Source of the DNA: Nitrospira sp.
GTDB lineage: Bacteria > Nitrospirota > Nitrospiria > Nitrospirales > Nitrospiraceae
DNA: 64,000 nt
Reading direction: 5' to 3'
NCBI GenBank assembly: GCA_031315995.1
Contig: JALDRG010000016.1
Span: 5,566 to 69,565 of the forward strand
The first letter of the stretch is position 1; each line of letters begins with the position of its first letter. A model generated the notes under the pieces. That model was not told where the DNA came from and did no database searches. It worked only from the letters and a program-made list of their open reading frames with translations. The position numbers and the translations under genes are program-made. Of this stretch, positions 4,824-26,759 are shown piece after piece.

Positions 4824-6095
4824 TCACCTTGGAAGGGGAACCGACGGGTCGTCGCTTGCTCCCCCCACAGACGTCTTGAGCCGAATCGTGCACCAAAAAG
4901 TCGACCCCTGTCCGAGGGTACTCTCGACGCCCACTGTCCCGCCCATCAACTCGGCCAATTGCTTGACAATGGCCAACCCCAACCCCGTGCCGCCGTATTT
5001 CCTCGTCATGGACCCATCCGCTTGCGAAAAGGCGTTCCACAGGCGAGCCTGCGCAGCCGGCTCCATGCCGATCCCGGTATCCTTCACTTCGAAACCGAGA
5101 GTCGTCTGTCCGTCGAACTCCTCCACGACAGTGACGTGCAGGACGATTTCTCCACGCTCTGTGAACTTCAATGCATTTCCCAGGAAGTTCACCAGGATCT
5201 GCCGTATGCGGACAGGATCTCCCCCGTAGTGATTGGAAAGGGAGTCCGGCAGGACACACTTCAAGACCACGCCCTTGGACGCCATCGGATGAGAAAACAG
5301 ATCGATTGCATCTTTCACCACCTGACGAAGATCGAACGGAACATTTTCGATCGTCAGCTTGCCGGCTTCGATCTTTGAAAAATCGAGGATGTCATTGATG
5401 ATTTGGAGCAGCGCCGCGCCCGAGCGTTGAACGGTTTCGGCATACCGGCGTTGTTTGTCGCTCAGGGGTGTCAGCAAGAGCAGCTCGTTCATGCCGAGGA
5501 TGCCGTTCATCGGAGTCCTGATTTCATGACTCATATTCGCCAAAAATTGCGATTTCGCCAGAGTCGCGGCCTCCGCAGCTTCCAATCGCGCTTTCACCTG
5601 TTGCGCGAGATTCCACTTTCTGGTCAATGAGGTCGCCAACTGCGACACTTCGACGCTGGAAAATGGTTTATTCAGAATCAAGAGGCGATCGTCATGTCCG
5701 AGTCGATGCACGATCTCCTCCCAGGGATGGTCCGTATAGGCCGTGCAAATAACCGTTTGAATATCAGGATCGACCTCCCAGAGATGCTCAATGGTCTGCA
5801 ACCCGTCCCAGCCCGGGGGCATGCGCATATCCACGAAGGCCACCGCATACGGCCGCCCTTCAGCACGAGCCATCTGCACCAGGGTGAGCGCGGACTGCCC
5901 CTGCTCAGCGCAGTCCAGTTCGAACCGTCCGAGCGCCCGCATGAGCGGCGGCGCGCCGAACAAGGCCGCCCGCGCTTGGTCGAGGCTCTCATCCCCGGCG
6001 CTTGCTTGAAGGATTTTTTGAAAGTCCTCGTGGATGGACTCGTTGTCGTCGATCACTAAGATCCGACGGTTTTCAGCAAGGGAACCCATGGTCAC
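4824..6095 (-). CDS. Hybrid response regulator / histidine kinase (REC-HisKA-HATPase)
   Basis: REC (VIDD, FVDMRMPPGWDG, KPF); H-box FLANMSHEIRTPMN; N, G1, F and G2 boxes (GNALKFT, DTGIG, GGTGLGL). Confidence 0.92.
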   Translation of the reverse strand: MTMGSLAENRRILVIDDNESIHEDFQKILQASAGDESLDQARAALFGAPPLMRALGRFELDCAEQGQSALTLVQMARAEGRPYAVAFVDMRMPPGWDGLQTIEHLWEVDPDIQTVICTAYTDHPWEEIVHRLGHDDRLLILNKPFSSVEVSQLATSLTRKWNLAQQVKARLEAAEAATLAKSQFLANMSHEIRTPMNGILGMNELLLLTPLSDKQRRYAETVQRSGAALLQIINDILDFSKIEAGKLTIENVPFDLRQVVKDAIDLFSHPMASKGVVLKCVLPDSLSNHYGGDPVRIRQILVNFLGNALKFTERGEIVLHVTVVEEFDGQTTLGFEVKDTGIGMEPAAQARLWNAFSQADGSMTRKYGGTGLGLAIVKQLAELMGGTVGVESTLGQGSTFWCTIRLKTSVGGASDDPSVPLPR

Positions 6096-6132
6096 TCATA
6101 TCTTTCTACCCGCGGCAACGGGATTTCCATCG

Positions 6133-7008
6133 TCATGGACGATCTCCTGTCCGAGTATCGCGTGCTCGATCAGCCATAAACTCGTGCATGTCCTTGATGA
6201 GGGCCAGAAGATCTTGGGCGCATCTTCGCAGGATCATCGTATGCTCTCGTTGCTCAGGATTGAGCGGGCTGTCGAGCAAGAGACTCACCTTGCCGACCAG
6301 TTCATTCATGGGCGTGAGAAGCTCATGGCCCATGATCGCCAAAAACTCTTCTTTCTCACGGAACACTGCCGCGGCATCGCCTAGATTCTGATCTTCAACA
6401 GTCTGTGCGATCCGTCGGACGATGTTTTCTTGAAGACGGTCGTTCGCTTCCTGCAACTCGACCGTTCGCTGGCTCACGCAGTACGCGAGGCTATTCATCT
6501 GCAGCTTTACCGAACGCGTCAGATTCCATTTTTTCGTAAGCGAATGGGCCAGCTGAACAACCTCGATGCTGTTGAATGGTTTCATAAGGATGAGCAGCTT
6601 ATCGGTGCTTCCGATTCGGCGACTCACGTCTTCCCACGGATGATCGGAATAGGCTGTGCAAATGACGATTTCAAGATCAGGATCGACATACCACAGATGT
6701 TCGATCGTTTCGAGGCCATCCCATCCCGGCGGCATACGCATGTCCACGAAAGCCATCGCGTAAGGGGAGCCCTCTCGTTGAGCACTCTGGAGCAAACCGA
6801 GCCCTTTTTGCCCTTGGTCCGTGAAGTCAACCTCATACCTCTCTTGAGACAGGACACTCGGCGGCTCTCCGAACAGGGCCACCCGAGCCTGATCGAGCGA
6901 GTCAGAATCTTTCGGCGGGGCAAGGATCTTACGAAAGTCCTCATGGATGGACTCGTTGTCGTCGATCACCAGAATCCGCCGATTGTCGATCGTCTCGTCG
7001 CGCTTCAT
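6133..7008 (-). CDS. Response regulator with coiled coil and truncated HisKA (no ATPase domain)
   Basis: REC domain is a close paralog of 4824..6095. C-terminal FLAIMGHELLTPMN, then a stop with no HATPase_c. Confidence 0.85.
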   Translation of the reverse strand: MKRDETIDNRRILVIDDNESIHEDFRKILAPPKDSDSLDQARVALFGEPPSVLSQERYEVDFTDQGQKGLGLLQSAQREGSPYAMAFVDMRMPPGWDGLETIEHLWYVDPDLEIVICTAYSDHPWEDVSRRIGSTDKLLILMKPFNSIEVVQLAHSLTKKWNLTRSVKLQMNSLAYCVSQRTVELQEANDRLQENIVRRIAQTVEDQNLGDAAAVFREKEEFLAIMGHELLTPMNELVGKVSLLLDSPLNPEQREHTMILRRCAQDLLALIKDMHEFMADRARDTRTGDRP

Positions 7009-8921
7009 GCGGCAGCCTCTGCCACGGTCAATGGAAGATCGAGTGTGAACGTGGCGCCACGTCCTTCTCCCGCGCTCTGCGCGAGTATGGCTCCGCCAAG
7101 ATTCTTGGCAGAGATGGCGGCACTATGCAGACCAAGACCGTGACCGGCATTTCTTGTAGTAAACCCCTGGGCAAACAGGCGTGAGATGTGCTCCGCCTTG
7201 ATGCCGCTCCCGGTATCGGACACCTCCAATCGCACCAGTCCTCTGCGGTCGGCGGGCAACTGGATTCTGACCGTGAGGCAATGCGAGTTCGCTGGATATT
7301 CGACCATGGCGTTCTTTGCGTTGGTGATCATATTCACCAGGATCTGAAGCACTTGGTGCCGATCCGTCACAATGGTCGGAGCCTTGGCATACTCCCGCAC
7401 GACTCGGATCCCATACTTTTCCGGCTCGGGCATCCCCATCATCAAGGCTTGCTCCATCAACTCTTCGACCACCGCTGTCTCACGAATGCTCCCCGAGTGG
7501 GCGATATCCTGCTGCGACAGAACCACGTGTTTAATATGGTCGACTTTTTTCACGAGGGAGTCGAGTTCGGCCTGGATGGTCTGGTGGCTCCCACTCAGGG
7601 ACTCGGCCACCAACCCCAGGTAAGAGGGAATCTGCTTTCCCTTCGGATCTTGCGTTAAGAACGTCTGCAAATTGTTCTGGTGCTCGTGGAACAGCGACGC
7701 GATTCGGCACACATCCCCGACCATCGGCTTCTTGAGGGTCTTTAACAGGGTATCGGTCGAAACGTTGATACTATTAAGCACATTGCCGACGTTGTGCAGC
7801 ACGCTCGATGCCACATCCGCCATCCCGGCCCGGCGGGACGCTTGCATGAGCTGCTGATGAAGTTCTTCCCGCTCCGCCTGGGCCTTTTTCCGCTCGTTAA
7901 TCTCACTGTGGAGATTCGCATTGGTGGTTTCGAGTTCCTCGTTCTTGTGCATAATCTGGGCGCGGGATGCTTCTAATTCCGTATTTGCGTCTCGGAGTTG
8001 GGAATTCGCTTGATCGAGTTCCGTGACATCATGGAAGGAAACCATGACCCCTCGGAGGGCCTCACGATCATCCAGGATCGGCGAACTCGTCACTACAAAT
8101 CGCCTGACCTCTCCATCCCCCTTACGCAATTCCAGCGGCAGGGCCGGAGCGGCTCGTTTGTGCTTACGGGCCATGATCCAAGGCAGTTCCGGTTCCACGG
8201 CGTTCGACCTGCCGGCTTCCCACGGAAACTCACAGAGATCATGCCCCATCAACGCATCTGGTCCCGCTCCGACACGGTCGCCGAACATCTTGTTCGCCAA
8301 TACGATCCGATCCTGCGGATCCACCAGCACCACGCCTACCGGGAGCACGTCGAGTGCGTTCCTCACTCGGTCAGGCACCACGGAGGAAGGATCCAGTTGC
8401 CTGAGCGTCCGTTTCATGAATGTCAGATACCCCAGATAGCCGCAGACAGCCATGAGTGCGAGAAACTGTATCCAGGGGTCCTGCACAATACCGCCGGCGA
8501 GAGACTCGGAGAGCGGACGGAACGCGACCTCCAGCGTCCCCCACCGGGACTCCCCGTTCATGATGGGTACCTGCACCTGATCAAAGGTCGATTCATCGCC
8601 CGGTCGCCTCACCCACTCTTTCTGGTGTTCTCCTGCCTGAGACAGTACCTGTCCATCGGCACGTCGCAGCGCCACGGATCGGATTTGGTCATTGCGCTCG
8701 ACCAATGCCTGCATGGTGATCTGCATGGTCTCTATCTCAGTCCGTTCCGCGAGTTTGGAGTACTGCACCGCCAGAACCTCGGCGAGAGATCGACGGTACC
8801 AGAGCGCGTCTTCGCTCTGGTCGGGCGCCACCTTCAGCAGCACATTGCCCACCATCATGAGGCTGAGCGTGAGGGACACCAACCCGAACGAAATCCATAT
8901 GATCGGCGAACCACGTTTCAC
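7005..8921 (-). CDS. Membrane PAS-domain sensor histidine kinase
   Basis: Two hydrophobic helices around an extracytoplasmic domain; PAS (GVVLVD...LAN); H-box SVLHNVGN; DTGSGI and GHGLGL boxes. 4-nt overlap with the next gene. Confidence 0.92.
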   Translation of the reverse strand: MKRGSPIIWISFGLVSLTLSLMMVGNVLLKVAPDQSEDALWYRRSLAEVLAVQYSKLAERTEIETMQITMQALVERNDQIRSVALRRADGQVLSQAGEHQKEWVRRPGDESTFDQVQVPIMNGESRWGTLEVAFRPLSESLAGGIVQDPWIQFLALMAVCGYLGYLTFMKRTLRQLDPSSVVPDRVRNALDVLPVGVVLVDPQDRIVLANKMFGDRVGAGPDALMGHDLCEFPWEAGRSNAVEPELPWIMARKHKRAAPALPLELRKGDGEVRRFVVTSSPILDDREALRGVMVSFHDVTELDQANSQLRDANTELEASRAQIMHKNEELETTNANLHSEINERKKAQAEREELHQQLMQASRRAGMADVASSVLHNVGNVLNSINVSTDTLLKTLKKPMVGDVCRIASLFHEHQNNLQTFLTQDPKGKQIPSYLGLVAESLSGSHQTIQAELDSLVKKVDHIKHVVLSQQDIAHSGSIRETAVVEELMEQALMMGMPEPEKYGIRVVREYAKAPTIVTDRHQVLQILVNMITNAKNAMVEYPANSHCLTVRIQLPADRRGLVRLEVSDTGSGIKAEHISRLFAQGFTTRNAGHGLGLHSAAISAKNLGGAILAQSAGEGRGATFTLDLPLTVAEAAA

Positions 8922-8942: not shown

Positions 8943-11900
8943 CTACCCACGGCCCGAACCAAACATCTCGTCGACATTCTTCGACGGATGCCCATCGGAC
9001 CCCTCGCCTTGGCTGGACTCCCGTTCAAGCTTCTCACGACGCCTTGCCGCACGCACCACCGGCAAAGGGTCGAAATGGTGCCACGTCGGCATGGTCGCCA
9101 ACAGGCTCGCGAGCAACCAGCCTCCGCGAAGCAGCCACGCCAGATAGCCGACGGACAACACCAAGCTGACTCCGCCCGCCGTCTTGGCCGTCAAGGTCAT
9201 CTGCTCCTGTCGCTCGTCCATCGCCCGCTGCAAAGCCTCCGTCATGGTATTCAGCTCCTTGACGAGAGCCCTCCCCAGTTTGGCCGGGATGTACGTTTCC
9301 TTCACTGCCTCAACCACCCGTTGCGCCTCCTCTCCGATACGCGCAAGGAGTTCAGGTCCAAGCGTATCGAAGAACGGGGCATCGAGTTCCTGTTTGGCGA
9401 CCAACGTTGGCTCACGATCGACTGTCTGAGCGACCAGCAAGGCTGGACGACCGGGGCTAAGTCCTTGGTCCAGGTGCACAGGCAACCCAGCCTCCGGCGT
9501 CGCAGCCGACCCTGCCGGTGGACCACTCGGGGGAGCCGGCGCTGGAGGCCCTGGCGGCGGCTCACCTCCACGCGGCGGGCCGCCAGATGGCGGAGGCCCG
9601 ACCGGCGGCGTGATCGCCCCTTCGAGCACATCCGTGACCGATACGGCCACGGTCTGAACCGCCATGCCCCCATTCCCGTCAGCCACCTGAACCTGGACGA
9701 GATAGACGTTATCGCCATTGGCATCGGCTGGTGCTTCGAAGTCCGGTGCCGCGACAAACGCCAGGTCACCGGTGGCCGCATTAATGGTGAAGCGAGCCGC
9801 ATCCGCCCCGCCCACGATGCTGTATGTCGGCACATCACCGTCCGGATCGGAAGAGGTGACGGAGCCCACGGCGGTCGTATTTTCGACGACGCTATATGCG
9901 CTGGTGGAGGTGATCGTCGGCGGGCTGTTGACCGGCGTGACGGTAATGTTGAAGGTCGTCGCGCCAAGAGATCCGCCGCCTCCGTCATTGACCGTAAAAA
10001 CGAAGCTATCACTCACCGTCTGGGAGCCGTCATGAACGTAGACGAGCTCACCAGCATTGATGTCGGCTTGCGTAAAGGCAGTGATCGCGATGCCGGGAGC
10101 GGTCGTCAATTCCAGTTGTCCGTTGGTCGGCCCGATAGTTACCGTATACGTCAGTTGGACCGGCGTGTTGTCCGGGTCGGTGACCAGTAACTCGGCGGTC
10201 GTGATCGAATCGGTTCCACCCTCCGCTACCGTCGCCCCCCCATTGGTCGCCAGCACCGGCGCGTCGTTGACGGGATCGACGGTGATCGCCACCGTGTCCA
10301 CATCGCTCGCGCTGGTCGTATCCGTGCTCGTCACCGTCAGCGTGTCGGCCCCGGTGTAGTTCACGGTGCCCTGATAGCTGAGCGTGGCCAACGTCGCGTT
10401 GAGATCGGCCTGCGTCCCCGACAAGGTGAGCGTGGCCGTGCCGTTACTGCCTGCGCTGATCGTGGCGCCGCCCTGCAAGGTCACCGTCACGGTGCCGTTC
10501 AAGACCCCCAGCTGCACGGTGCTCAAATTACCGTCCACATCGGTGACCGAGATCCCGCCCAGCGCCAGCGCCGTGTCCTCGTTCACCGTTTGTGCCCCCG
10601 GCACCGTGTTCACCGGCGCGTCGTTGACGGGATCGACGGTGATCGCCACCGTGTCCACATCGCTCGCGCTGGTCGTATCCGTGCTCGTCACCGTCAGCGT
10701 GTCGGCCCCGGTGTAGTTCACGGTGCCCTGATAGCTGAGCGTGGCCAACGTCGCGTTGAGATCGGCTTGCGTCCCCGACAAGGTGAGCGTGGCCGTGCCG
10801 TTACTGCCTGCGCTGATCGTGGCCGCCCCGCTGAGCGTCACGGTGAGCTTGCCCTGCCCCACCCCCAGCTGCACGGTGCTCAAATTACCGTCCACATCGG
10901 TGACCGAGATCCCGCCCAGCGCCAGCGCCGTGTCCTCGTTCACCGTTTGCGCCCCCGGCACCGTGTTCACCGGCGCATCGTTGACCGCTGTGACATCGAT
11001 CGTCAGCGTGTTCGGCGTCCCGTCGAGGTCGCTCCCGCCGTTCGCCGTGCCCCCGTCGTCCTGCACCTGGAAGGTAAAACTTGTGAGCGCGGCCCCGTTG
11101 GCATCTGCAGGAGGCCTATACGTGACCAAGCCGGAGGCAATGTCCCACGCCACCACAAAGTCGTTGGCCGAGATGGTGTTGCCATTCCACCTGAGCGTCC
11201 CCTGCGCGGGCACTGTCGTGAACCACACTCGATCCAAGTTGTGCCCATCCACATCGCTAAAGCCGAAGTCCGCCGGAGCGAAGGTATAGTCCGTATCCTC
11301 CGTGGCCGTGATCGTGCCATTCGCTCCTGCTGGCGCATCGTTGACCGCGGCCACGGTCAGCGTCACCGTCTGCGTCGCGCTCGGCAGGGTCCCGTCATGG
11401 GCCACTACGGTGATCGAGCGGTTGCTCGGCGTCGGCTGGTCGCTCGTGTTGTTGTAGAGAAGGCCTTGCAGCACCGTCTGGTATACCGCCGGCGTGGCCG
11501 ACCCCGTGATCGACAGCACCCCCGTCGCCGCCGTGTAATTCACCGTTAAGCTCGCCCCGGAGGCCGCCGTCGTCGCCGCGCCATTGAGCGAGAGTGACTC
11601 CACGCCATCACCATCGAGCCGCGCCGTCAGCATGACCGTTAATGCGGTCAGAGTGGCCGAGTCCACATCGGTCAGCGTCCCCACCGGTGCAATCAGCACC
11701 GGGGTCTGTTCCGTGAATGCGGTGGTCACATCCTGGCCCGCCCCCCCGGCGTTCAGATCCACCGCCGGCGCATCGTTGGTCGCCACGATAGTGAGGTTCA
11801 CGGTGCCGTCGTTACTATAGGCAACGCCGTCCTCGGCCCTGATGTAGATCGTGCGCGAGGTGGTTGTCGGACTGTCGGACGTGTTCTGATAGCGGATCGT

Positions 11901-14900
11901 GCGCAACACCTGCTCGTAGTGCGCCACCGTATCGCTCCCGCTCAATGTCAGCACTCCGGTATTGGCATCATAGGCCACCGCGATCGAGGTGCCTGTGACG
12001 TCTGCGGTGAGTTGCTCGCTCGCACCGTCGTAGAGTGTGTCGATGCTTGCGGTCAGCCCGGACAACAGCGCGTCGTCGACATCGGTCAAGGTGGCATCGG
12101 CGTCCACAATCGCGACCGCTCCCGCCCCTTCCGTGAAGGTGGCCAAAAAATTGGCACCGGTCGCTCCGGAACTGTTGTCCGCGTCCAAGTCCAGCACCGG
12201 CGCATCGTTGACGGGATCGACGGTGATCGCCACCGTGTCCACATCGCTCGCGCTGGTCGTATCCGTGCTCGTCACCGTCAGCGTGTCGGCCCCGGTGTAG
12301 TTCACGGTGCCCTGATAGCTGAGCGTGGCCAACGTCGCGTTGAGATCGGCCTGCGTCCCCGACAAGGTGAGCGTGGCCGTGCCGTTACTGCCTGCGCTGA
12401 TCGTGGCGCCGCCCTGCAAGGTCACCGTCACGGTGCCGTTCAAGACCCCCAGCTGCACGGTGCTCAAATTACCGTCCACATCGGTGACCGAGATCCCGCC
12501 CAGCGCCAGCGCCGTGTCCTCGTTCACCGTTTGTGCCCCCGGCACCGTGTTCACCGGCGCGTCGTTCACGCCGCTGACCGTCACGGTCGTGTCGTAGTTG
12601 GCGCTGGTGCCGCCGTCCCCATCGGTCAACACATAGCGCACCGTGCGCGCCCCGGTCGTCGGCGCATTCGTGTCGGTGTCTTGATAGGTGATGTTCTGGA
12701 CCAAGGCCGTCACGGCCGTGGGGGTGGCGCTGCCGTTGAACGTAATCACGAGGTTCGTGCCGCTGCTGCCGCCGGTGACGGTCCCGATGGTCACGCCTTG
12801 ATAGGTCACATTGCTGCCGCTCACCCCGATCTGCCCGGCTCCGGTGCCTTGGTTGCGGATGCTGAGCACGTCCTCCGCACTGTCGCTGCCCGCGCTAAAG
12901 CTCACGGTGAGGGTGCCCGTGTTGAAGTCGGCACTGTCCACATCGGCCACCACCGCGTTGCCGCCCTGCTCGATGACCACCGCCCCGTCACCTTCGCTAT
13001 AGGCCAGGCTGTCGCCGCTCAGGTTCGTGATCGTCGGCGCGTCGTTGACGGGATCGACGGTGATCGCCACCGTGTCCACATCGCTCGCGCTGGTCGTATC
13101 CGTGCTCGTCACCGTCAGCGTGTCGGCCCCGGTGTAGTTCACGGTGCCCTGATAGCTGAGCGTGGCCAACGTCGCGTTGAGATCGGCTTGCGTCCCCGAC
13201 AAGGTAAGCGTGGCCGTGCCGTTACTGCCCGCGCTGATCGTGGCGCCGCCCTGCAAGGTCACCGTCACGGTGCCGTTCAAGACCCCCAGCTGCACGGTGC
13301 TCAAATTACCGTCCACATCGGTGACCGAGATCCCCGCCCAGCGCCAGCGCCGTATCCTCGTTCACCGTTTGCGCCCCGGCACCGTGTTCACCGGCGCATC
13401 GTTGACCGCGGCCACGGTCAGCGTCACCGTCTGCGTCGCGCTCGGCAGGGTCCCGTCATGGGCCACTACGGTGATCGAGCGGTTCGAGGTGGTCGGCGTA
13501 TCGCTCGTGTTGTTGTAGAGAAGGCCCTGCAGCACCGTCTGGTATACCGCCGGCGTGGCCGACCCCGTGATCGACAGCACCCCCGTCGCCGCCGTGTAAT
13601 TCACCGTTAAGCTCGCCCCGGAGGCCGCCGTCGTCGCCGCGCCATTGAGCGAGAGTGACTCCACGCCATCACCATCGAGCCGCGCCGTCAGCGTGACCGT
13701 TAATGCGGTCAGAGTGGCCGAGTCCACATCGGTCAGCGTCCCCACCGGTGCAATCAGCACCGGGGTCTGTTCCGTGAATGCGGTGGTCACATCCTGGCCC
13801 GCCCCCCCGGCGTTCAAATCCACCACCGGCGCGTCGTTCACGCCGCTGACCGTCACGGTCGTGTCGTAGTTGGCGCTGGTGCCGCCGTCCCCATCGGTCA
13901 ACACATAGCGCACCGTGCGCCCCGGTCGTCGGCGCATTCGTGTCGGTGTCTTGATAGGTGATGTTCTGGACCAAGGCCGTCACGGCCGTGGTCAACGCTG
14001 GCGTTGAACGTAATCACGAGGTTCGTGCCGCTGCTGCCGCCGGTAGCGGTCGATGGTCACGCCTTGATGAGTCACATTATGCCGCTCACGCCGATCTATC
14101 CGCGGTCGCCAGTTCCGGATGCTGGTACGTCCTCACGCACTGTCGCTGCCCGCGGTAAAGCTCACGGTGAGGGTGCCCGTGTTGAAGTCGGCACTGTCCA
14201 CATCGGCCACCACCGCGTTGCCGCCCTGCTCGATGACCACCGCCCCGTCACCTTCGCTATAGGCCAGGCTGTCGCCGCTCAGGTTCGTGATCGTCGGCGC
14301 ATCGTTGACGCCGCTGACCGTCACGGTCGTGTCGTAGTTGGCGCTGGTGCCGCCGTCCCCATCGGTCAACACATAGCGCACCGTGCGCGCCCCCGTGGTC
14401 GGCGCATTCGTGTCGGTGTCTTGATAGGTGATGTTCTTGACCAGCGCCGTCACCGCCGTGGGGGTGGCGCTGCCGTTGAACGTAATCACGAGGTTCGTGC
14501 CGCTGCTGCCGCCGGTGACGGTCCCGATGGTCACGCCTTGATAGGTCACATTGCTGCCGCTCACCCCGATCTGCCCGGCTCCGGTGCCTTGGTTGCGGAT
14601 GCTGAGCACGTCCTCCGCACTGTCGCTGCCCGCGCTAAAGCTCACGGTGAGGGTGCCCGTGTTGAAGTCGGCACTGTCCACATCGGCCACCACCGCGTTG
14701 CCGCCCTGCTCGATGACCACCGCCCCGTCACCTTCACTATAGGCCAGGCTGTCGCCGCTCAGGTTCGTGATCGTCGGCGCATCATTGACCGCCGTGATAT
14801 TGACTGTCGTGTTGCCCGTCGCGCTCAGTGCCCCGCCTCCGCCCTGGGCACCCGTGTTGCCGTCGTTGAAGGTCCAGTTGATCTGCACAGAAGCCGGCGG

Positions 14901-17900
14901 CGTCGAGCTGTTGTTGGCGTAGGCAATCGCGCGCATCGCCGAATCGACCAGCGTCTGGGTGGCGCCGGCGTTGAAGGTCAGCAGCAGGGTGCCGCCACTG
15001 TTGGTGGTGACCGTGCCGATGGTCGTGCCGTTGAACACGAGCGCGCCGCCCTCGGCCAGCGTCGCCAACAAGCCGGATGCCGAGTAGACGTCCTGGGCAT
15101 TCGCGCCACCGTTGCGCGCGAGGGTCAAGGTCGCGCCGCCGAAGTTGTTCAGCGTGCTCAGTTCGGCATCGAATATCGTCACATCGTTATCGAGCACGAC
15201 CGCCGTCGCTTTTTCGGTGTACGCAATCGTTCCACCAAGGCTATCGCGCGTGTTGAAGCGGCTATCGAGCGTGCCATCGCTGTTATAACGCACGACGGCG
15301 AAGTCATAGTCACCGCCGATGGTCGAGGTCCCGGCAACCACAATCTTGCCGTCCGTCTGCACCAAGACTGACGCACCACGATCGTCACTGCTGCCGCCGA
15401 AGTTGGTGTCTACCTTGCCGGTGCCCGCACCGAAGCTCGTGTCCAGGCTGCCGTTCGCGTTATAGCGCACGACGGCGAAATTATTACCGGCCGTACTGCT
15501 TTGGCCGGCCACCAGGATCTTACCGTCGGCCTGCACGGTCACGCTCTGGGCGAGATCGCTGCTGCTGCCGATGGCGGTTGTGACTTTCCCAGTACTGTTG
15601 AAAGTCGTATCCAGACTTCCGTCGGTATTGTAGCGGACCAGCGCGAAATCGGTTGTGCCACCGGCATCGCTCCATCCGGCAAGAAGAATCCTGCCGTCCG
15701 GCTGCAGGGTGACCTGGTAGCCAGTGTCACTACTGGTCGCGCCCAGATCCGTCAGCACCTTGCCGGTACCGTTGAACGTTGTATCCAGCGTGCCGTTGCT
15801 GTTATAGCGCGCCAAGGCGAAATCAAAGCTGGTGCCGCTAAATGCGAACCCGCCGAGCACGATCCGGCCGTCTGCCTGCAGCGCAATGCTGTACGCGCCA
15901 TCAGTGCCGGCGGCGAAATCGGTCGCGACGAATCCACTCGTACCGAAGCTTGTATCGAGACTGCCATTGCTGTTGAAGCGCGCCAGCCCGAAGTCGGAGT
16001 TGTACTTCCCCGCGACCAGGATTTTGCCGTCGCTTTGCACCGCGACCCCGTTGCCTTCGTCGTTGAAACTAGTGCCCGAGGTTGCGATGCCGTCGCCACC
16101 GCCAAAGCTGCTGTCCAGGCTGCCGTCGGCGTTGTACTGCACCAAGACCATGTCCCAACTGGTTCCGGTGTAGGTACTGCCGGCCACCACAATGCGACCA
16201 TCGGCCAACAGGTAGACGCCTTTCGCAATGTCATCGCTTGCACCGATGACCGTGGTGACCTTGCCGGTGCCGCCACCGAAGCTGGTGTCGAGGCTGCCGT
16301 CGGCGTTGTAGCGCGCGACAGCGATATCCTTGGTGCCGCCGGTCTGCGTGTATCCGACGGCAACGATCTTGCCGTCGGGTTGAATCACCGACGCATTGAT
16401 CAGATCCCACGTGCTGACTGCAAACGCGGTCGTCGTTCGGCCGGTTCCCACTTCGAACGACGGCGCATCATTGGCGGCCGTCACCGTGATCGCCACCGTA
16501 TCCACATCCGTCGCGCTCGTGGCATCCGTGCTCGTCACCGTGTGATGACATCTCGACGCGATTGGGTATGGACCAGCTGGTGACATGCTCGCGTTGAGAT
16601 CGGCTTGCGTCCCCGACAAGGTGAGCGTGGCCGTGCCGTTACTGCCTGCGCTGATCGTGGCGCCGCCCTGCAAGGTCACCGTCACGGTGCCGTTCAAGAC
16701 CCCCAGCTGCACGGTGCTCAAATTACCGTCCACATCGGTGACCGAGATCCCGCCCAGCGCCAGCGCCATTGTCCTCATTGACCGTTTGCGCCCCGGCACC
16801 GTGTTCACCGGCGCATCGTTGACACCGCTGACCGTCACGGTCGTGTCGTAGTTAGCGCTGGTGCCGCCGTCCCATCGGTCAACACATAGCGTACAAATGC
16901 GCGCCCCGGTCGTCGGCGCATTGGTGTCGGTGTCTTGATAGGTGATGTTCTGGACCGACCGTCACGGCCGTCGGCGTGGCGCTGGCGTTCAGCGTAATGA
17001 CGAGGTTCGTGCCGCTGCTGCCGCCGGTGACGGTCCCGATGGTCACGCCTTGATGGTCACATTGCTGCCGCTCACGCCGATCTGCCCCGCCCCGGTGCCT
17101 TGGTTGCGGATGCTGAGGACATCCTCCGCACTGTCGCTGCCCGCGGTAAAGCTCACGGTGAGGGTGCCCGTGTTGAAGTCGGCACTGTCCACATCGGCCA
17201 CCACCGCGTTGCCGCCCTGCTCGATCACCACGGCCCCATCGCCTTCGCTATAGGCCAGGCTGTCGCCGCTCAGGTTCGTGATCGTCGGCGCGACGTTGGT
17301 TGTGTAAGACACGACAAGTTGGGCAGCCGTCGCCGGATCGGTATCATACGCCTGAGAGGCACGGTGGCCAGTCCCGGTGATGATGATCGCTAAATCATTC
17401 CCCGATGCCCATGTGCCCTGATTCACGATTTCCTGCACCACGGAAGAAATGTCCGGCGAGTTGTAATCCAAGCCAGTCGTCCAGTTGGTTGGTGTCCAGG
17501 CGGTGGAAGCGCTGGTCAACGCCCGACTGCTGATATTGCCGCTGGTAGTTGTGAACGTCGGTGCATCGCCAATCAATTGCCCTTTCAATGTCAGGCTGGT
17601 TGCATCACTGTTTGTCATTCCAGAATCCGCTGGTATCGCTCGAAAGACAAGATACGCGTTGGTGATGGTCGCACCGACAGGAATATTCATTCCCGTAAAA
17701 CGGAGCCCGATCTTCTGTACCCCGGCAGTGGGAGACTGGAAGTCGCTCACAAGCTCGATATCACTGCTATTCAGCCACATCCTGTTGGGGGTAGTGCCAG
17801 TTGGTCCTTCTTCTTCGGCGTCGTCACTGGCTGCTGCTACCCTTTGAGTCAATGTAGCGGTATTGGCTACCGAAACGGTGACGGCGAACTCGGAGGTGTT

Positions 17901-20900
17901 GTTACTTGCATCGGTCGCTGTGGCAGTCACCCGATCGCCGAGAACTAATGTGCCGGCGGCAAAAGTAAACGAGAACTGCCGGGCCGTCGCATCGACGGTT
18001 CCGGCCGTGCTACCGCTCACCGTGCCACGACCGATCAAGGTCTGACCCTCGCCATTGACGCCGGCTGCATCTGGACTCTCGAAGAACTCTACGGTGGCGC
18101 CCGGCCGCGCCTCGCCGGTGATGATGACGTTGCCTCCCGATATCACCACGCTGTAGATCACCGGAAAGTTCATCAGATTGTTCGGCCCGGTGTCGCCGTC
18201 GCCGCCATCGTTGGTCGTGACACCGGACGTACCGAGATCGATGCCTAATCCCGTATTGCCGTAAATCGAATTGGACTGGATGGCATTCCCCGTCGTGCCC
18301 GCACCTGTCACACTCACCCCGACGGCGTTGCCTACGATGAGATTGCGTTCATTCGCATCATTGGTGCCGTCGTTGTTGCTGCCAATGAGCGTGCCAGTCG
18401 ATCCCCCTTCTACGCTGATACCATACGTACCGTTGGCGAGAACCGTCGTCCCGTCTGCACCGACACCGATGTAGTTGCCCTGGATGGTGGCACCGGTGCT
18501 CGCATTGCCCACCACGATGCCACTGTACGTATTCGCAGCGATGACATTGCGCGCGGCAGCCGACGAGCCGCCGAAGACGTTACCTGTACCGGCGTTCCAG
18601 AAGGTTGCACCACCGTTGATGTTGCCCAGCGCCAGTAGACCCGTCACGTCGGTACCGAGGTAGTTGCCCTGCAACAGGTTGTTCTGCGAGCCAAACAGCA
18701 CCTCAAAGCCGAAGTGGTTGTTGCCCGAGAGGATGTTTCGCGCGGCGGCAACGGTGCCGCCGACGACGTTGCCGCTGGAGCCGTTGGTCAGGAAGACGCC
18801 GCTTTGCGCCGTGTTGGCGACCGAGCCGTTCACGTCGGCGGTGCCCGCCGCGTTGGTGCCGACGTAGTTACCCGCGATCGTGCTGTTGTCAGCGTTGTCG
18901 AAGTAGATGCCCTGCTCGGCGTTGCCCGAGATCACGTTGCGCTCGGCGGCATCGTTCGTGCCATCGGCGTTGGTGCCGATCAACAGGCCCGTCGCGTTGA
19001 GTGCGTAGATGCCTTTGACGCCGTTAGCGGCGACCGCGGTGCCCGCCGCGTTCAGGCCGATCCAGTTGCCCTGGATGACATGATTGTTCGAATTCTGGAT
19101 TTCGATGCCCGTGCCGGTAAAGCGGTTGACGATCAGACCGCGTACCGTGCTGCCGCTGCTGCCGGCGTCGAGGAACAGGCCCCTGACACCGCCGCTGACG
19201 TTGTTGCCGTTCAGTTCGATCACCGGCGTGCCGGCGAAGTCGGGCTCGCTCCAGCCGTTGATGACCACGGGGCTGGTGATGGTGGGTATCGCGTCGGGTG
19301 TCGTGCCGGCGTCGGGGCCGTCGTAGCTGAGCGTGATCGTGTGTACACCGCCGACCAGTGCGGCCGTGATATCGAAATAGATGTAGTCCGTGCCGCTCGA
19401 GGCATTCGCTGCCGTGATGGCTTCACGCAATGAGATATGACCATCGGCTCCTGGGTTGGCGATCAGATTGGCGACGGATGTGGTTGTCCCATCTACTGTA
19501 TCGTTGGTGGTGCTCACCACGAGCCCTGCGCGAGGTCCAAATTCCGAGGTGCTGCCGTAGGTGCCGCCGCCTAAGTCACGCGTAGCGGTGGCGCTGATGC
19601 GCGTGATCGACGTAGCCGTCACACTATTCAAGGTGCCGGTGAAAGTCTGTGCGCCGCTGCCGGTGCTGGTGACCGATAAAGCACCCAAGAAAACCTGCCC
19701 TTCGCCGTAGCGGCTCGAGTCGATGCCGGAGGGATTCTCAAAAAGCTCGATGCGGTAGGTACCGGCTGGCACGTCCAGCACCAGGGTGACATCCAAGTTC
19801 GCCCCGTTCTGCACTATCTTTGTGATGATGGGAAAGTTAAGCAAGCCGTTGGCGCCGCTGTCCCCGTCGCCGCTGTCGTTGACAGTGACACCGTCGGTGC
19901 CAAGGTCGATGCCGAGCTGCGAGTTGCCGAGGATCGAGTTGCCGAGGATCGTGACGCCCGTGGATGCGGACGTCACGTTCACGCCGTAGGTGTTGTTCGC
20001 GATCAGGTTGCCGGCGCCGTTCGAGGTTCCGCCGATCGTGATGCTGCTGGCGCCGGCCACCGAGATGCCGCCGTAGTAGTTGCCGAGCGCCGTGGTGCCG
20101 TCGGCACCGACACCGATGTAGTTGCCCTGGATCACGTGTCCGCTGCCGCCGCTGATATAAATGCCGTCGGCGCTCAACGCGCCGTTGTTCTGCGCGGCGA
20201 TGATGTTGCGGTCGGCTGCGCTGGTGCCGCCGATCGTGGTGCTCACGGCGTTTAGCAGCGCGATTCCGTCGTGCTCGTTGCGCAGCGCGACGTTGCCGGT
20301 CGCATCGACACCGATCCAATTGCCGGCGATTAAGTTGACAGCGACGCCCGTGGCGACGATGCCGATGTCATTGTTGCCCGACACCAGGTTGTCGCGCACC
20401 GTGTTCGAGCCGCCTGTGATGCTGATGCCGGCGCCGGTATTGCCGACGTCGACGGTGCCGGCGGCATTGGTGCCGATGTAGTTGCCCTGTACGGTATTGC
20501 TTCCAGTACCGGCCAGTTGAACGCCGGCAAGGGCGTTGCCAGAAATGACGTTGCGCGCGCCTGTGGTCGTGCCACCGATCAGATTGCCCGTCGCGCTGCC
20601 CTGAATCTGGACACCGTCGCTGGACCGGTTGCCGCGATTAAGGGTGCCGGTGGCATCCGTGCCGATGTAGTTGCCCTGTACGATGTTGTTGGACGTGTTG
20701 ATCTCGATGCCCTCGAACATCCTCGAGATCACGTTGCGTGCGGCGGCCGTCGTGCCGCCGATGATGTTGCCAGTTCCCGAGATGATGGCGATGCCGACGT
20801 CGCCCAGTCCATTGTTGGTCGACCCGTCAGGATCCAGACCGATGTAGTTGCCTTGGATCAGGTGGCCGGTCACACCCGATCCCACGATGTCGATGCCTTC

Positions 20901-22205
20901 GTCGACGTTGTTGGTGATGACGTTACGGTCGTTCGGTCCGGTTCCACCGATGACGGCCAACGAACCTCGCAGATCGATGCCGTCGTCGCCGTTTCCGACA
21001 CCGCTTGAGCCTGTTCCTGTGGTGCCGATCCAATTTCCGCGGACCGTGATGCCATCGGCTCCCGTATCGACACGGATGCCGTCACCGGTAAACCGCGTCA
21101 ACACCAGACCTCGAACGATGCTGTTATCGGCCGTCGATGAGAACCTGATCCCGGTGGTCGCTACGCCATTGCCGTCCACACGAATCAGCGGATTGCTCGT
21201 AAAGCCGGTCTGGGTCCAGCCGTCGATTGTCACCTGGTCGGTGATCGTGTCTAAGTTGGATGCAAGCGTAATCGTCTGCGCCCCGGAACCGATGGCGAAT
21301 ACAATCGTGTCGGCACCGGCGGCGCCGTTCGCGCCAATGATCGCTTGGCGGAGCGAGCCGGCTCCGGCATCGTTCGTGTTGGTGACGGTGAAGGTCGCCA
21401 AGACGCCTTCCCAAGCCTCCTGCGTAGCCGTTCCGATCACGACGGAGGACTCAATCGATCCAGTCGCTACTTCCAAATTCCAGTTCGCAAATTCGGACAC
21501 ATGCCCTGTGCGGTCGGTGCTCGCCGCCACATCGGCGCCGGTGAGCTGCGCCAATGTCTGCATCGCCAACTGACCGGCCTCGCCGCGACCGAAGTTGCAA
21601 CCGTAGATCAGCAGGTCGGCATTCTGAGAGAGGCTTTGGCCGATCTGTTGAAACTGGTTCGCATACTGCTTCGTGATGGACTCTTGCGTCAGAAAACTTG
21701 TGCCGAGGTGGAGCTCCGCCTCGTTCCCTTCGGCGATCAGGTGAATCGCGTCCACGCCGGTGCGGTTCGCCAGCGCCTCGGCGATCTGCGCGATGCCGTC
21801 GCGGCGCCCATCAAGCAGGATGACTTCTGCATCGGGATTGATGCCCTGGAGGAGGACTTGAGAATCGGCAATGGTCGAGTCCACGAAGACGACTTCGCGA
21901 CGCTGCGTCGCCGGCGGATCGTAGGTGGAGATGGCGTCGAGGAGCGGATCCGGCGCAGAGGCGCTCGTATGGGGCGCATCGTGAGCTGCGTCCGCACTCA
22001 TTGCCGCGTCGGCCTGCTGTTTCGCGACCTGCTCCGGGGCGAGTTCGGCGGCGGTCGCTGCGGCCGCCGCGTCGAACATGAGGCGTGGCTCGAGCGCAAG
22101 CAAGGAGGCCTTTACCCCTCCGGACCGGCCTGTTGGGCGGCCTTTGCAGTTCGGCGGCTGCTGCTCCACGCCTGCCGGCCTCTTTGGCTGTGCTGGTCTT
22201 CCCAT
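8943..22205 (-). CDS. Giant (~4,400 aa) repetitive surface adhesin, apparently frameshifted: LEPRxxxD leader, DUF4347, two beta-helix blocks, delta-60 propeller, cadherin/Ig-like repeats, Pro linker, C-terminal hydrophobic helix
   Basis: ORF-track pieces 17043..22205, 14133..16838, 13362..13937 and 8943..13316 are collinear parts of one protein sharing VNDAP-delimited repeats. DUF4347-type motifs (VVFVDS, DAIHLI, DLLIYGCNFG, ADVAASTDRTG). Breaks coincide with indels relative to sister repeats. Confidence 0.85.
10258..17290 (-). repeat. Intragenic near-identical coding repeats (three module types)
   Basis: Module A (~360 bp, VNEDTALALGG...) near 10260, 10620, 12200, 13040, 16480. Module B (~480 bp, TITNLSGDSLAYSEG...) near 12560, 13830, 14300, 16810. 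Module C (~430 bp, VDLNAGGAGQDV...) near 11340, 13400. Boundaries approximate. Confidence 0.9.
15250..16400 (-). repeat. Seven delta-60-type repeats (beta-propeller) inside the adhesin
   Basis: Seven [QL]xDG[KR]I[VL]xxG...RYNxDGSLDxxF-like units in ORF 14133..16838. Confidence 0.85.
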
Positions 22206-22388: not shown

Positions 22389-24515
22389 TCAGAAGCCGCT
22401 CTCCCGGGCTAAGACGGCGACCGTTCGGACCCAAACCCGTTCGGCGACACTCCAGGGACGGCCCTCGACCTGGAGCGTTCCCGTGACGGCCTGGTTCCAG
22501 ACCGGTCCATCTCCCAGTAACTGGACATGCACGCGGAAGATGGACGCATCCGGCCGGACCCGACCCTGAGGATCTTTGCGAGTCGCAATGTTGCCTCCAT
22601 AGATCGATGCGTAGTAGGGAAGCGCGAACGTACTGTCATCGATCTGCCGAATTTCACGCACACGAGCCGGCAGCGCATCACGAATCAGATCCTTCGGAAC
22701 GAATCGCGCGAGTTGTCCCGGTTCGAGATAGGCCAGTTCACCTTCCGGGGCGACGGCATCGATTCCGGCCCGCTCCCCATCGACCACATAGGCTAACGCC
22801 AGCTTCTCGTTGACCCAACGACCTGGATGGAGGGATTCTGCGCAATCCGTCACTATCCCAGTGATCGGCGCCCGTAAGATCAGTTGTTCGCGCTGTTCCA
22901 GCAGCCCTCGCAGCTCTGCCCTGCGCGAGTGCAAGGATTCGACGACGACCTGGCGCTGCATGCGATCCGTTTCGCTGGAGGCCTGCCGCCCTGCGCGCAC
23001 TTCGAGGACTTCGATCTGTATCTGCGTGCGCCGCAGGTCCCGTTCAAGCTCCGGGGATTCAAGGTTCAGTAATATGTCGCCGGCCTGCACCCGTTGCCCA
23101 TTGCGAACCCTGACGGCACCGATGCGTGCGGGAATCGGAGCATAGAGGGTGGCATAGGGTGTCGCCTGGACCACTGCCTGGAGTGAGACCCGCGAAGACC
23201 ATGGGACGACCATCAGCATGATCAGCGTGAGCGATACCAGTGTCGTGACCCAGAACCGACTCCCCACGGCAAGCATGGATCGTTCCTTCCACCACCCATG
23301 GATTTCACGTCCGATCGGCAGCAGGATGAACCACAGGATTTCGACGGCAAACAGGACCACGCCCAAGGCCTTGAAGAAGAAAGAATAGACGAGTACGGCG
23401 ATCCCGAGGAACAGGAAGAACCGGTAGAGCCATGTCGCCCACGCATAGAGCAGCAGTTTTCGCCGTAACGCCGACGAGACGGGCTCCGGCGCCGCTTCAC
23501 CCGACGCAAACAGCAGTTCGCGGAGTTTCCATCGGCCGAAGGCGAAGGCGCGGTCTTGCAGGTTTGGGACTCCAAGCCAATCGGCCAGTAAGTAGTAGCC
23601 GTCGAATCGCATGAGCGGATTGAGGTTGATCGAGAGTCCGATCACCCAACTGGCCGTGGCGACCACGAAGGCCAGGGTGCGGGCTGTGCCATCGGGCAGG
23701 AAATTCCACGTAAACGTGGCCAGCATGGCCAAGGCGAGTTCCATCACCATTCCCGCGGCCCCGATCGCGAGCCGCTGACGCCGCGAGGTCAGGCGCCAGG
23801 CCTCGGTGGTATCGGAATAGAGCACCGGGAAGAGCACGAGCAATGCCACGCCCATGGTCTGCACACGACAGCCGTATTTGGTCGCCGTGTAGGCATGCCC
23901 CAGTTCATGCAACACTTTGATGCCGGCCAAGGCCGCGGCGGAGAGCACCGCGCCCTGGAACGTGAAGAAGGTGGGAAAGGTCGACACGAACGTGTCCCAT
24001 TGTCGACTGACCAAATACAACCCGCTCACCCCGAGCAATAGAACGAGCCAGGCGGCGCCCCACGTGAACAAGGGTGCGACCAGCGGGAGCGTCACGCGAA
24101 GGAACCGTTCCGGTCTGACGAGCGGGATGCGAACGAACAGGTAGTGGTGGAGCAGCCACGCCCCCCATCCCTGTCGCCTCGCTTCTGCCTGAGCGGCATA
24201 GTCCCGGCTGCTGCCGCTGGGCGTCTCTTCGGTGAGATTGTTGACGAAGAGAAACGTGATGAGGTCTTGGACGTCTTGCTCGGTTACTCGGCAGGTGGTC
24301 TCACTCTGAACGGAGTGGATGACCCGGTCGATCGATCCGCAGGCCCATCGTTCCAGCAATTGATGCGCCGTCCAACCGACCTGAAAATACCGGTTCCGAA
24401 CGGGATCGACGATCGTCCACACCGGTTGTCCATCCGGGGCAGGCGTCGATTCGAGAAATTGCAGATTGGCGCGAAGTCTCGGCAGCGGGCGCGCGGGTGA
24501 TGGCCCCATCAACAT
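22389..24515 (-). CDS. M50 (site-2) intramembrane metalloprotease fused to an HlyD-type adaptor domain
   Basis: HELGH and NLNPLMRFDG zinc motifs in a multi-TM core; C-terminal lipoyl-like hairpin, coiled coil and beta-barrel (VRVRNGQRVQAGD...LRAPITG). Confidence 0.9.
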   Translation of the reverse strand: MLMGPSPARPLPRLRANLQFLESTPAPDGQPVWTIVDPVRNRYFQVGWTAHQLLERWACGSIDRVIHSVQSETTCRVTEQDVQDLITFLFVNNLTEETPSGSSRDYAAQAEARRQGWGAWLLHHYLFVRIPLVRPERFLRVTLPLVAPLFTWGAAWLVLLLGVSGLYLVSRQWDTFVSTFPTFFTFQGAVLSAAALAGIKVLHELGHAYTATKYGCRVQTMGVALLVLFPVLYSDTTEAWRLTSRRQRLAIGAAGMVMELALAMLATFTWNFLPDGTARTLAFVVATASWVIGLSINLNPLMRFDGYYLLADWLGVPNLQDRAFAFGRWKLRELLFASGEAAPEPVSSALRRKLLLYAWATWLYRFFLFLGIAVLVYSFFFKALGVVLFAVEILWFILLPIGREIHGWWKERSMLAVGSRFWVTTLVSLTLIMLMVVPWSSRVSLQAVVQATPYATLYAPIPARIGAVRVRNGQRVQAGDILLNLESPELERDLRRTQIQIEVLEVRAGRQASSETDRMQRQVVVESLHSRRAELRGLLEQREQLILRAPITGIVTDCAESLHPGRWVNEKLALAYVVDGERAGIDAVAPEGELAYLEPGQLARFVPKDLIRDALPARVREIRQIDDSTFALPYYASIYGGNIATRKDPQGRVRPDASIFRVHVQLLGDGPVWNQAVTGTLQVEGRPWSVAERVWVRTVAVLARESGF

Positions 24516-24518
24516 GGC

Positions 24519-25919: not shown

Positions 25920-25964
25920 AGGACGACCGTAGTGCGGCTGAGTGACGAATCGCTGCGTCCAAGG

Positions 25965-26759
25965 TTAGGGGTGGGGAACGGGAAAACTTGCCGTACCACT
26001 CATCCCTGCCAACACCTCGGAAGGGAGCTTCTCAAACCGCCCCGTGACCTTGATGGTTTGACTGGCCGGATCGACATTGGCTCCCAGTTCCTTGACCACT
26101 GCGGGATAGGGGCGTCCGGTTTCATCCACAGAGAAGACGAACCGCCCGCCTCTGGCCAACCAGCTCAGTGAATTCGACGGCAAGACAAGTTCGATCTCCA
26201 AACTGGTATCATCCAACAGGCTCAGCAACTTGTCGTTCGGAAAGACATTTTCATATTCGTGGACCAAGACCTCCACGATCCGTCCCGAGAACGGCGCCGT
26301 GATTTCACACCCCCGCACGTTGATTTCCATGATCCGGATGGCCGCCAACGCTTTTTTCGCCTCGGCCGCCGAAACTTCGACTTCCAATTGGCCGACGGCA
26401 TGCAAAGTTGCCAGTTGAAGATTGTTCCGATGGGTCTTTTCTTTCGCCTCGTATTCCGCCATCGCCCCTGCGAGCTCCGCTCGGTACTTGTCGCAATCGA
26501 TTTGGACCAGTGAACTGCCCTTCTTGAACCGCGCCCCTTCTCGAAACGGCAATCGCTTGACGCGACCTTGAATCTGACTAAATAACACCGCCTGCGTGGC
26601 GGCCTTGACGATGCCGCGCATCGCCTGGAGCTCACTTCGCACAGCCGGCGACGACGGTTCGGGCTTGGCCTCCCCACGGGCGTGGCCGGTCACACACAGG
26701 AGGCTTCCCGCCAGAACAAGACAGACGTTACTGAGCCACCGGACGAATCGTAGGGACAT
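25965..26759 (-). CDS. Periplasmic adaptor subunit (membrane-fusion protein) with signal peptide
   Basis: SQIQGRV...FKKG, ITAPFSGRI, VDPASQT motifs. Start re-called at MSLRF (26759) from the RBS. Confidence 0.88.
   Translation of the reverse strand: MSLRFVRWLSNVCLVLAGSLLCVTGHARGEAKPEPSSPAVRSELQAMRGIVKAATQAVLFSQIQGRVKRLPFREGARFKKGSSLVQIDCDKYRAELAGAMAEYEAKEKTHRNNLQLATLHAVGQLEVEVSAAEAKKALAAIRIMEINVRGCEITAPFSGRIVEVLVHEYENVFPNDKLLSLLDDTSLEIELVLPSNSLSWLARGGRFVFSVDETGRPYPAVVKELGANVDPASQTIKVTGRFEKLPSEVLAGMSGTASFPVPHP

Follow-up and report, generated by a model that had tools for sequence, protein, structure and literature searches.

Two single-pass auxiliary proteins encoded in the same operon, YycH and YycI, control the histidine kinase WalK of Bacillus and Staphylococcus by contact between transmembrane helices. 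In Pseudomonas fluorescens, the LapA-LapG-LapD system ties the retention of a giant repeat adhesin to a signalling protein with two transmembrane (TM) helices and a periplasmic domain; LapA reaches the surface by type I export driven by an ATP-binding cassette (ABC) protein, carries a C-terminal signal and is held by an N-terminal plug in its outer-membrane channel. Among the ways in which bacteria might sense the export, engagement or loss of giant adhesins, Lap is the one well-understood case, and there the signal passes from inside to outside. Here we analyze a 64,000-nucleotide stretch of DNA from Nitrospira sp. (contig JALDRG010000016.1, positions 5,566 to 69,565; hereafter the window) that carries, on its minus strand, a giant adhesin gene followed directly by a gene for a sensor histidine kinase. 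The C-terminal ~150 residues of the adhesin are a conserved, previously undescribed module, which probably serves as an inner-membrane anchor and tail that form a cognate pair with the sensor.

By analogy, such a system would work most like a kinase controlled by auxiliary proteins of the WalK-YycH/YycI type. The sensor has the same layout as WalK (TM helix, extracytoplasmic PAS-like domain, TM helix, cytoplasmic PAS), and its putative partner is likewise a single-pass membrane protein encoded next to it. However, the module has no sequence relation to YycH or YycI in Pfam, NCBIfam or the Protein Data Bank (PDB), it forms the end of a giant exported repeat protein, and its helix is C-terminal rather than N-terminal. 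The outputs of the sensors also vary, unlike those of WalK, between histidine kinase (HK), GGDEF, GGDEF-EAL and hybrid HK, and the contact between the partners is here a proposal. The likeness to Lap lies in a giant repeat adhesin whose retention would be coupled to a signalling protein that has two TM helices and a periplasmic part, and in the GGDEF-EAL output that some relatives of the sensor share with LapD. In contrast to LapA, the adhesin would be held by a C-terminal anchor in the inner membrane, neither RTX repeats nor a type I secretion system (T1SS) signal are found, and none of the 47 ABC_tran matches in the genome lies on the contig that carries the window (C8). Outputs of the active type moreover predominate among the sensors, and they suggest a signal that runs from outside to inside and not the other way.

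A conserved module at the end of a giant adhesin

Positions 8943-9620 (minus strand) code for the final 225 residues of an open reading frame (ORF) at 8943-13316 (-) and include its TAG stop, whereas the plus-strand reading of the same interval yields no meaningful protein. A preliminary description of this end had listed a Pro-rich linker, a helical stretch, a hydrophobic stretch and a tail starting RAARRREK, and every string that it quoted is present in the minus-strand translation. The last ~225 codons specify a Pro-rich linker, two helices, a 32-residue hydrophobic helix, the motif P-x-W-x-x-FDPLPV and a charged tail. These parts are as follows, with residues numbered over window positions 8946-9395 (-):

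9513..9611, minus strand: Pro-rich linker of ~33 residues, over half of them Pro or Gly, joining the last cadherin-like domain to the module (translation)
9201..9374, minus strand: two predicted helices (residues 8-32 and 38-65), presumably periplasmic (AlphaFold2 (AF2) secondary structure, low to moderate confidence)
9093..9188, minus strand: hydrophobic helix (residues 70-101), putative membrane-spanning anchor (hydropathy, AF2, column counts)
9057..9089, minus strand: signature motif P-x-W-x-x-F-D-P-L-P-V (residues 103-113), probably at the cytoplasmic membrane face (alignment)
8946..9056, minus strand: charged tail of 37 residues with a basic start (alignment)

The last 186 residues were compared by phmmer with 1.84 billion representative proteins, giving 3,461 matches at E<=1e-3 and 156 at E<=1e-10, far more than chance. 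In each of the 150 matches listed, the aligned part is the very C-terminal end, be it of a metagenomic fragment or of a protein, the longest having 3,711 residues, and the signature motif is found again in nearly all of these top 150. The nearest public locus, that of Nitrospira sp. RBC048, is 88% identical across the module. In a cross-phylum alignment of 35 sequences (Nitrospirota, Pseudomonadota and Planctomycetota, plus one contig binned as Chloroflexota), G83, W87, P103, W105, D109, P110, L111 and P112 are invariant in all 35, and R90 is present in 33. The core hydrophobic pattern reads G...LS.G(F/Y)..W.LR(G/S)G.LL.S.L...P.W..(F/L)DPLP(V/I), and its centre, following the invariant W87, is a near-invariant L89-R90-G/S-G in which G/S91 and G92 are conserved.

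The flanking parts are conserved in pattern as well. In alignments, the second of the two predicted helices shows a heptad-like L..L..M...L..A pattern, and 50 of 66 related modules have a 40-residue window with at least 12 Pro that lies ~160-200 residues before the conserved Trp. The tail varies from 21 to 69 residues among complete copies and contains a conserved distal amphipathic motif (8961-8975 (-) in the window copy; family pattern [DE]-x-[FS]-x-[GS]-[LI]-x-x-[LMIV]-[LFV]), which is preceded by a charged spacer of variable length.

The last 225 residues have no match in Pfam or, at E<=0.01, in NCBIfam, and a profile search of PDB sequences gave no match to the module. Literature searches on DUF4347, M50/HlyD adhesins, LEPR-XLL, and Nitrospira cadherin and T1SS yielded nothing on the module or on a module-sensor pair. 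We agree with the preliminary description that this end is not a T1SS signal: neither an RTX repeat (PF00353) nor a T1SS C-terminal domain was detected by Pfam or NCBIfam on the 1457-aa ORF product or its last 225 residues, and the combination of a hydrophobic helix with a conserved motif at the membrane face is, to our knowledge, unlike known T1SS signals. The C-terminal sorting signals of the GlyGly-CTERM/rhombosortase, PEP-CTERM/exosortase and LPXTG/sortase systems share with the module a signature motif, a hydrophobic helix, a basic cluster and a dedicated neighbouring gene. In the module, however, the helix comes first and the motif second, with 21-69 further residues of tail, no NCBIfam model matches, and the neighbouring gene encodes a sensor and not a sortase-type enzyme. 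The module belongs neither to the T1SS substrates nor to the known C-terminal sorting signals.

Membrane topology was judged from Kyte-Doolittle hydropathy, flank charge and AF2. With an alignment as input, AF2 models residues 70-101 as one continuous helix and not a hairpin (predicted local distance difference test (pLDDT) 77-78 for the block), with a break at P-T-W and DPLP after the helix and then a helical charged tail. The maximum 19-residue mean hydropathy is 1.53 for the window copy, and the median over 79 family members is 1.61. Median charge, taken over 66 modules, is 0 before the helix and +3 in the 15 residues after the motif. The conserved hydrophobic helix and the charged tail support the C-terminal membrane tether put forward in the preliminary description, and the helix is likely to be a membrane anchor, whose orientation we infer to be N-out/C-in. 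Because its conserved Arg is buried and its hydrophobicity marginal, the sequence suggests that the anchor may need a partner within the membrane.

The proteins that carry the module outside the giant adhesins bear on this orientation. Two genomes of the sister family (G186 and G159) encode shorter proteins, 1100-1300 aa long, that contain a beta-helix, finish with the module and have signal-peptide-like N-termini, made up of a basic region, a 14-residue hydrophobic core and VSA/E. The presence of the module on proteins with such N-termini would imply the layout of a type I membrane protein. At loci L103 (1392-5225, plus strand) and L104 (1381-4740, minus strand), such proteins of 1100-1300 aa with a signal-peptide-like N-terminus and a beta-helix also have a calsyntenin-C-like region before the module at their end, and a sensor gene follows each. 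Being remote from any cassette of the kind found upstream of the giant gene (see below), the two would be periplasmic relatives anchored in the inner membrane.

Proposed pairing of the module with a downstream sensor

The gene that follows the adhesin in the window is the proposed partner of the module:

7005..8921, minus strand: sensor histidine kinase, 638 aa, starting 21 nt past the adhesin stop

The 21-nt gap holds a second in-frame stop and no terminator-like site, and a strong ribosome-binding site, GGAAGGAG, precedes the sensor start. This arrangement recurs well beyond the window. In 56 of 78 public loci recovered by a search with the module alignment, a homologous sensor directly follows the module; the gap is <=110 nt in 51 of these 56, and stop and start codons frequently overlap. 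The paired loci include Gammaproteobacteria, a "delta proteobacterium", Granulosicoccaceae, Rhodoferax and Pirellulaceae. Across 401 Nitrospirota genomes, 43 of 54 sensor matches lie directly behind a module match, and 37 genomes have both partners, 8 the module only and 2 the sensor only. All five non-Nitrospira genomes examined (Pseudomonadota and Planctomycetota) have the pair, with seven of nine sensor matches following a module. The sensor accompanies giants of the LEPR/DUF4347 type as well as module-bearing proteins with signal-peptide-like N-termini.

While the input part of the sensor is retained, its output is exchanged. The relative in a Pseudomonadota metagenome-assembled genome is 36% identical to the Nitrospira sensor over 330 residues (E 1e-67); it is a PAS-GGDEF-EAL protein, and its gene starts at the very stop codon that ends the gene of a cadherin protein with the module. 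Altogether, four outputs occur with the one input part: HK, GGDEF, GGDEF-EAL and a hybrid HK-REC-Hpt. Such swapping is the usual signature of a constant stimulus with a varying output.

Module and sensor also diversify in parallel. For 55 pairs, module and sensor distances correlate with a Mantel r of 0.94, which none of 2000 permutations reaches, and cluster agreement (adjusted Rand index) is 0.96, although lineage mates are not independent, so that these figures and those for co-occurrence overstate the support. Paralogous module and sensor classes within one genome keep one-to-one partners. Two module-sensor pairs follow one another at a gammaproteobacterial locus (L079, 331-879 and 9222-9668, plus strand), and they differ in both module class and sensor class. 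The genus-mate G059 offers a case of loss: its cassette cargo (L097 6395-12583 (-), a 2063-aa frame) retains the helix and lacks both W..FDPLPV and the tail, and no sensor gene was found behind it or elsewhere in that genome. Three further genomes (G152, G219 and G263) have partial module matches like that of G059 and are likewise without a sensor.

An alternative that these data address is that the module is an anchor only, and that the sensor regulates expression of the anchored protein or shares a cue with it through the operon link alone, with no contact between them. Two-component and cyclic di-GMP (c-di-GMP) genes are indeed frequent neighbours of adhesin operons, and both orphan sensors and sensor-less modules occur. 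Yet the sensor tracks the module and not the type of adhesin or the export route, being absent from module-less cargo of the same cassette; the stop and start codons often overlap; the classes co-diversify one to one, even as paralogues in a single genome; and where the motif and tail have gone, so has the sensor. We consider an anchor without contact unlikely.

The structure predicted for the sensor has a layout like that of WalK. AF2 models its input part, the first 335 residues (7917-8921 (-)), with a pLDDT of 81.7, in the order TM1 (6-29), periplasmic domain (35-134), TM2 (149-175), PAS (184-298) and coiled coil. The periplasmic domain is an alpha/beta domain of ~100 residues with two helices and four strands, and the first periplasmic helix contains invariant R43 and E48. 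In a Foldseek search the best match of the input part is the integrative WalK-YycH model (9a5d_A, E 2.4e-12), a match dominated by the PAS domain. A juxtamembrane stretch, LDPS..(V/I)P.RV, is conserved in the sensor, and the cytoplasmic PAS is conserved together with the module. A conserved D-P motif thus stands just past the final membrane helix on each side of the pair, as FDPLPV in the module and as LDPS..(V/I)P.RV in the sensor.

These features lead us to favour a reading in which the module would hold the C-terminus of an exported protein in the inner membrane, N-out/C-in. Its parts would run from two periplasmic helices through a marginal membrane helix with a buried Arg to FDPLPV at the cytoplasmic face and the charged tail. 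Contacts might then form between the membrane helices and LDPS..P.RV stretch of the sensor and three elements of the module, namely its Arg-bearing anchor helix, its FDPLPV face and its tail. Through them, whether the adhesin is exported, engaged or loaded could be turned into kinase or c-di-GMP output. A tentative further possibility is that the giant, envelope-spanning protein acts as a mechanical or contact probe, with load, attachment or loss of its outer part passed directly to the output of the sensor.

Apart from the relatedness of lineage mates, several points weigh against this reading. The window copy has a hydropathy below the usual 1.6 cut-off, and AF2 models the module only weakly (mean pLDDT 65). 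Five modules, including those of Planctomycetota and Granulosicoccaceae, are net acidic after the motif, so that the positive-inside argument does not hold for all. Support for contact is indirect, through co-diversification, and adjacency could reflect co-regulation alone. About 22 of the 78 module loci lack an adjacent sensor, 11 of the 54 Nitrospirota sensors are orphans, of which three were confirmed to lie in a different conserved neighbourhood, and no sensor was found in G201 and G393, which carry full modules.

Three loci illustrate the orphan context: in L100 (G189 C1:3529500-3541000), L101 and L102, a sensor kinase gene is followed by a REC-HisKA-like gene, with no module gene upstream. 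In these genomes the cassette-linked giant has the module and no adjacent sensor, and orphan sensor and sensor-less giant of the same genome may pair in trans. In another genome, G327 (L099, C85:12000-19500), the sensor lies directly downstream of the M50-HlyD gene described below; masked bases separate the two, which makes the locus uninformative. The giant gene of G327 has perhaps been collapsed in assembly or deleted.

Downstream of the sensor in the window are two genes of a putative relay, both assigned by Pfam and NCBIfam:

6133..7008, minus strand: REC-HisKA protein
4824..6095, minus strand: REC-histidine kinase

According to the preliminary description, the REC-HisKA gene overlaps the sensor kinase gene by 4 nt. 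No output domain is visible in the relay (4824-7008 (-)), and the REC-HisKA-like gene behind the orphan sensors is similar to the one here.

The giant gene and the M50-HlyD cassette

The 1457-aa ORF that ends in the module is just the 3' piece of a single gene of ~13.3 kb, which runs from 22205 down to 8943 and is now spread over at least four frames:

17043..22205, minus strand: 5' piece, with an LEPR-type leader ("LEPRLMFDA"), DUF4347 and a beta-helix
14133..16838, minus strand: piece with delta-60/DUF5122 repeats
13362..13937, minus strand: repeat piece
8943..13316, minus strand: 3' piece, with tandem-95, cadherin-like and Big_9 repeats and then the module (Pfam, NCBIfam)

The protein begins with the LEPR-type leader and DUF4347. 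The frame is broken at window positions 13316-14133 and 16838-17043 (-). Because the repeat DNA at ~13350-14130 has many single-base indels when set against intact repeat copies, the breaks look like assembly errors in repeats and not like the decay of a pseudogene.

Directly upstream of the giant gene lies an export or processing cassette that spans 22389..28266:

22389..24515, minus strand: M50-HlyD, a protease with intact HELGH and NPLMRFDG
24519..25919, minus strand: GAF-HlyD
25965..26792, minus strand: third adaptor
26728..28266, minus strand: TolC-like protein

Working in silico, Kamneva, Poudel and Ward 2015 (PMC4452313) described a pump-less cassette of TolC, three adaptors and M50 protease, which is the type found here. 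Its cargo and the C-terminus of the cargo are not described in that work. The secondary SecA-like protein of the described cassette is not found in the genome of the window, where a genome-wide search for such a motor returned only canonical SecA.

The preliminary description had proposed that the hydrophobic helix is a tether cut by the neighbouring M50-HlyD protease, which would release the adhesin in an inverted form of Lap-type retention, and had suggested co-occurrence of module and protease as a check. Within Nitrospirales this association is strong. Among the 401 Nitrospirota genomes, the module is present in 45 and an orthologous M50-HlyD in 49, with both in 42, the module only in 3, the protease only in 7 and neither in 349; outside the same two families, neither is found. 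On contigs that permit the comparison, a single giant frame usually ends with the module 3-18 kb downstream of M50-HlyD and on its strand (for example in G305, G297, G189, G343, G195 and G275), and the protease gene stands at this distance upstream in nearly all Nitrospirales loci. Intact zinc motifs in the protease speak for shedding as well, as do the conserved small or helix-breaking residues G83, G/S91, G92 and P103 in or beside the helix. In having a membrane helix with helix-destabilising residues and an M50 protease gene nearby, the module resembles site-2-protease substrates such as RseA, which is cut by RseP. The GG ahead of the hydrophobic stretch that was singled out initially, G74 and G75, is not conserved; G83 and P103 are invariant, and the conserved turn-like element is R-G/S-G in the middle of the helix.

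The wider distribution of cassette and module argues against shedding. On an Escherichia coli IncF plasmid and an Azospirillum plasmid, cassettes whose proteases are 36-46% identical to M50-HlyD of the window accompany giant cargo with an LEPR-type leader that ends without a hydrophobic module; a hidden Markov model of the module finds no match in the two 42-kb loci (best E 3.3), and no sensor is present in them. The E. coli locus (L096 2272-15651 (+), NZ_CP081693) encodes an Ig-like protein of 4,459 aa with the leader "LESRQLFDG", upstream of TolC, two adaptors and M50-HlyD, and the C-terminus of this protein lacks a hydrophobic segment. Conversely, module proteins with signal-peptide-like N-termini are encoded more than 1.5 Mb from the cassette. 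Genomes with the motif and without the cluster, which the preliminary description had named as evidence against its proposal, do exist but are a minority of cases: in G401, G293 and G345 the module is present and an M50-HlyD-type gene was not found. Two of these are weak as cassette-less cases, since the adhesin gene of G401 is broken by an assembly gap, for which reason we dropped it as a clean example, and the module frame of G293 contains a stop. Taken in both directions, M50-HlyD without module and module without M50-HlyD, the module appears to be independent of the cassette, which would be a further difference from RseA and RseP. Module and sensor are an add-on present in only some cassette systems.

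The mechanism of known site-2 proteases points the same way. RseP-type enzymes selectively cut N-in/C-out helices, their substrates require prior periplasmic trimming, and bulky periplasmic domains block them (PMC4597795). Flank charge and the proteins with signal-peptide-like N-termini instead suggest that the module is N-out/C-in, the opposite orientation, with a periplasmic part of thousands of residues. The similarity of M50-HlyD of the window to the daptide leader peptidase hints that the N-terminal LEPR leader of the giant may be the substrate of the protease. And because the cassette also works with module-less cargo, the protease of this widespread pump-less TolC/adaptor/M50 system is unlikely to exist for cutting the C-terminus of the module. 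Shedding would also leave the conserved distal motif of the tail and the link to the sensor unexplained. The proposal that the adhesin is released by M50-HlyD is thus not favoured by the evidence, and we regard it as improbable; as far as can be inferred from sequence, the module is not a site-2-protease substrate.

Two other roles for this end of the protein can be weighed on the same evidence. In one, an intramembrane protease, M50 or another, would free the tail after load or a first cut, and the tail would bind the PAS domain of the sensor in a Notch-like fashion. Such a scheme would suit a conserved distal motif that is set off from the membrane by a variable charged spacer, a cytoplasmic PAS that is conserved along with the module, and a protease that occurs in most, though not all, genomes with the pair. 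The considerations of orientation and independence that count against shedding apply equally here, however, and the pair also occurs in genomes where an M50-HlyD gene was not found. We consider a freed tail very unlikely. In the other, the hydrophobic end would be a C-terminal secretion or targeting signal for the pump-less TolC/adaptor/M50 machine and not a lasting anchor. Type I substrates do have C-terminal signals, and in Nitrospirales the module is genetically linked to the TolC/adaptor cluster. Against this, cargo of the same cassette elsewhere lacks the module, the cargo already has the N-terminal LEPR-type leader associated with the cassette, the module is also found on proteins with signal-peptide-like N-termini, and no ABC protein is encoded on the contig. 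There is accordingly very little to recommend an export signal, and a lasting inner-membrane anchor paired with the sensor remains the reading that we prefer.

Possible implications for surface sensing

The module is a large family for which neither Pfam nor NCBIfam has a model, and is a candidate for a new domain entry. A conserved membrane anchor and tail, tied so closely by gene order to a sensor whose kinase or c-di-GMP outputs can be exchanged, would offer a way to sense surfaces from the outside in, and one that can be put to the test. Its relevance would extend to nitrifiers, in which biofilm matters for water treatment, and to several other phyla. Should the giant protein act as a mechanical or contact probe, it would with its sensor be the equivalent, divided between two genes in diderms, of adhesion receptors that have signalling tails, and would be conserved from Nitrospirota to Pseudomonadota and Planctomycetota.

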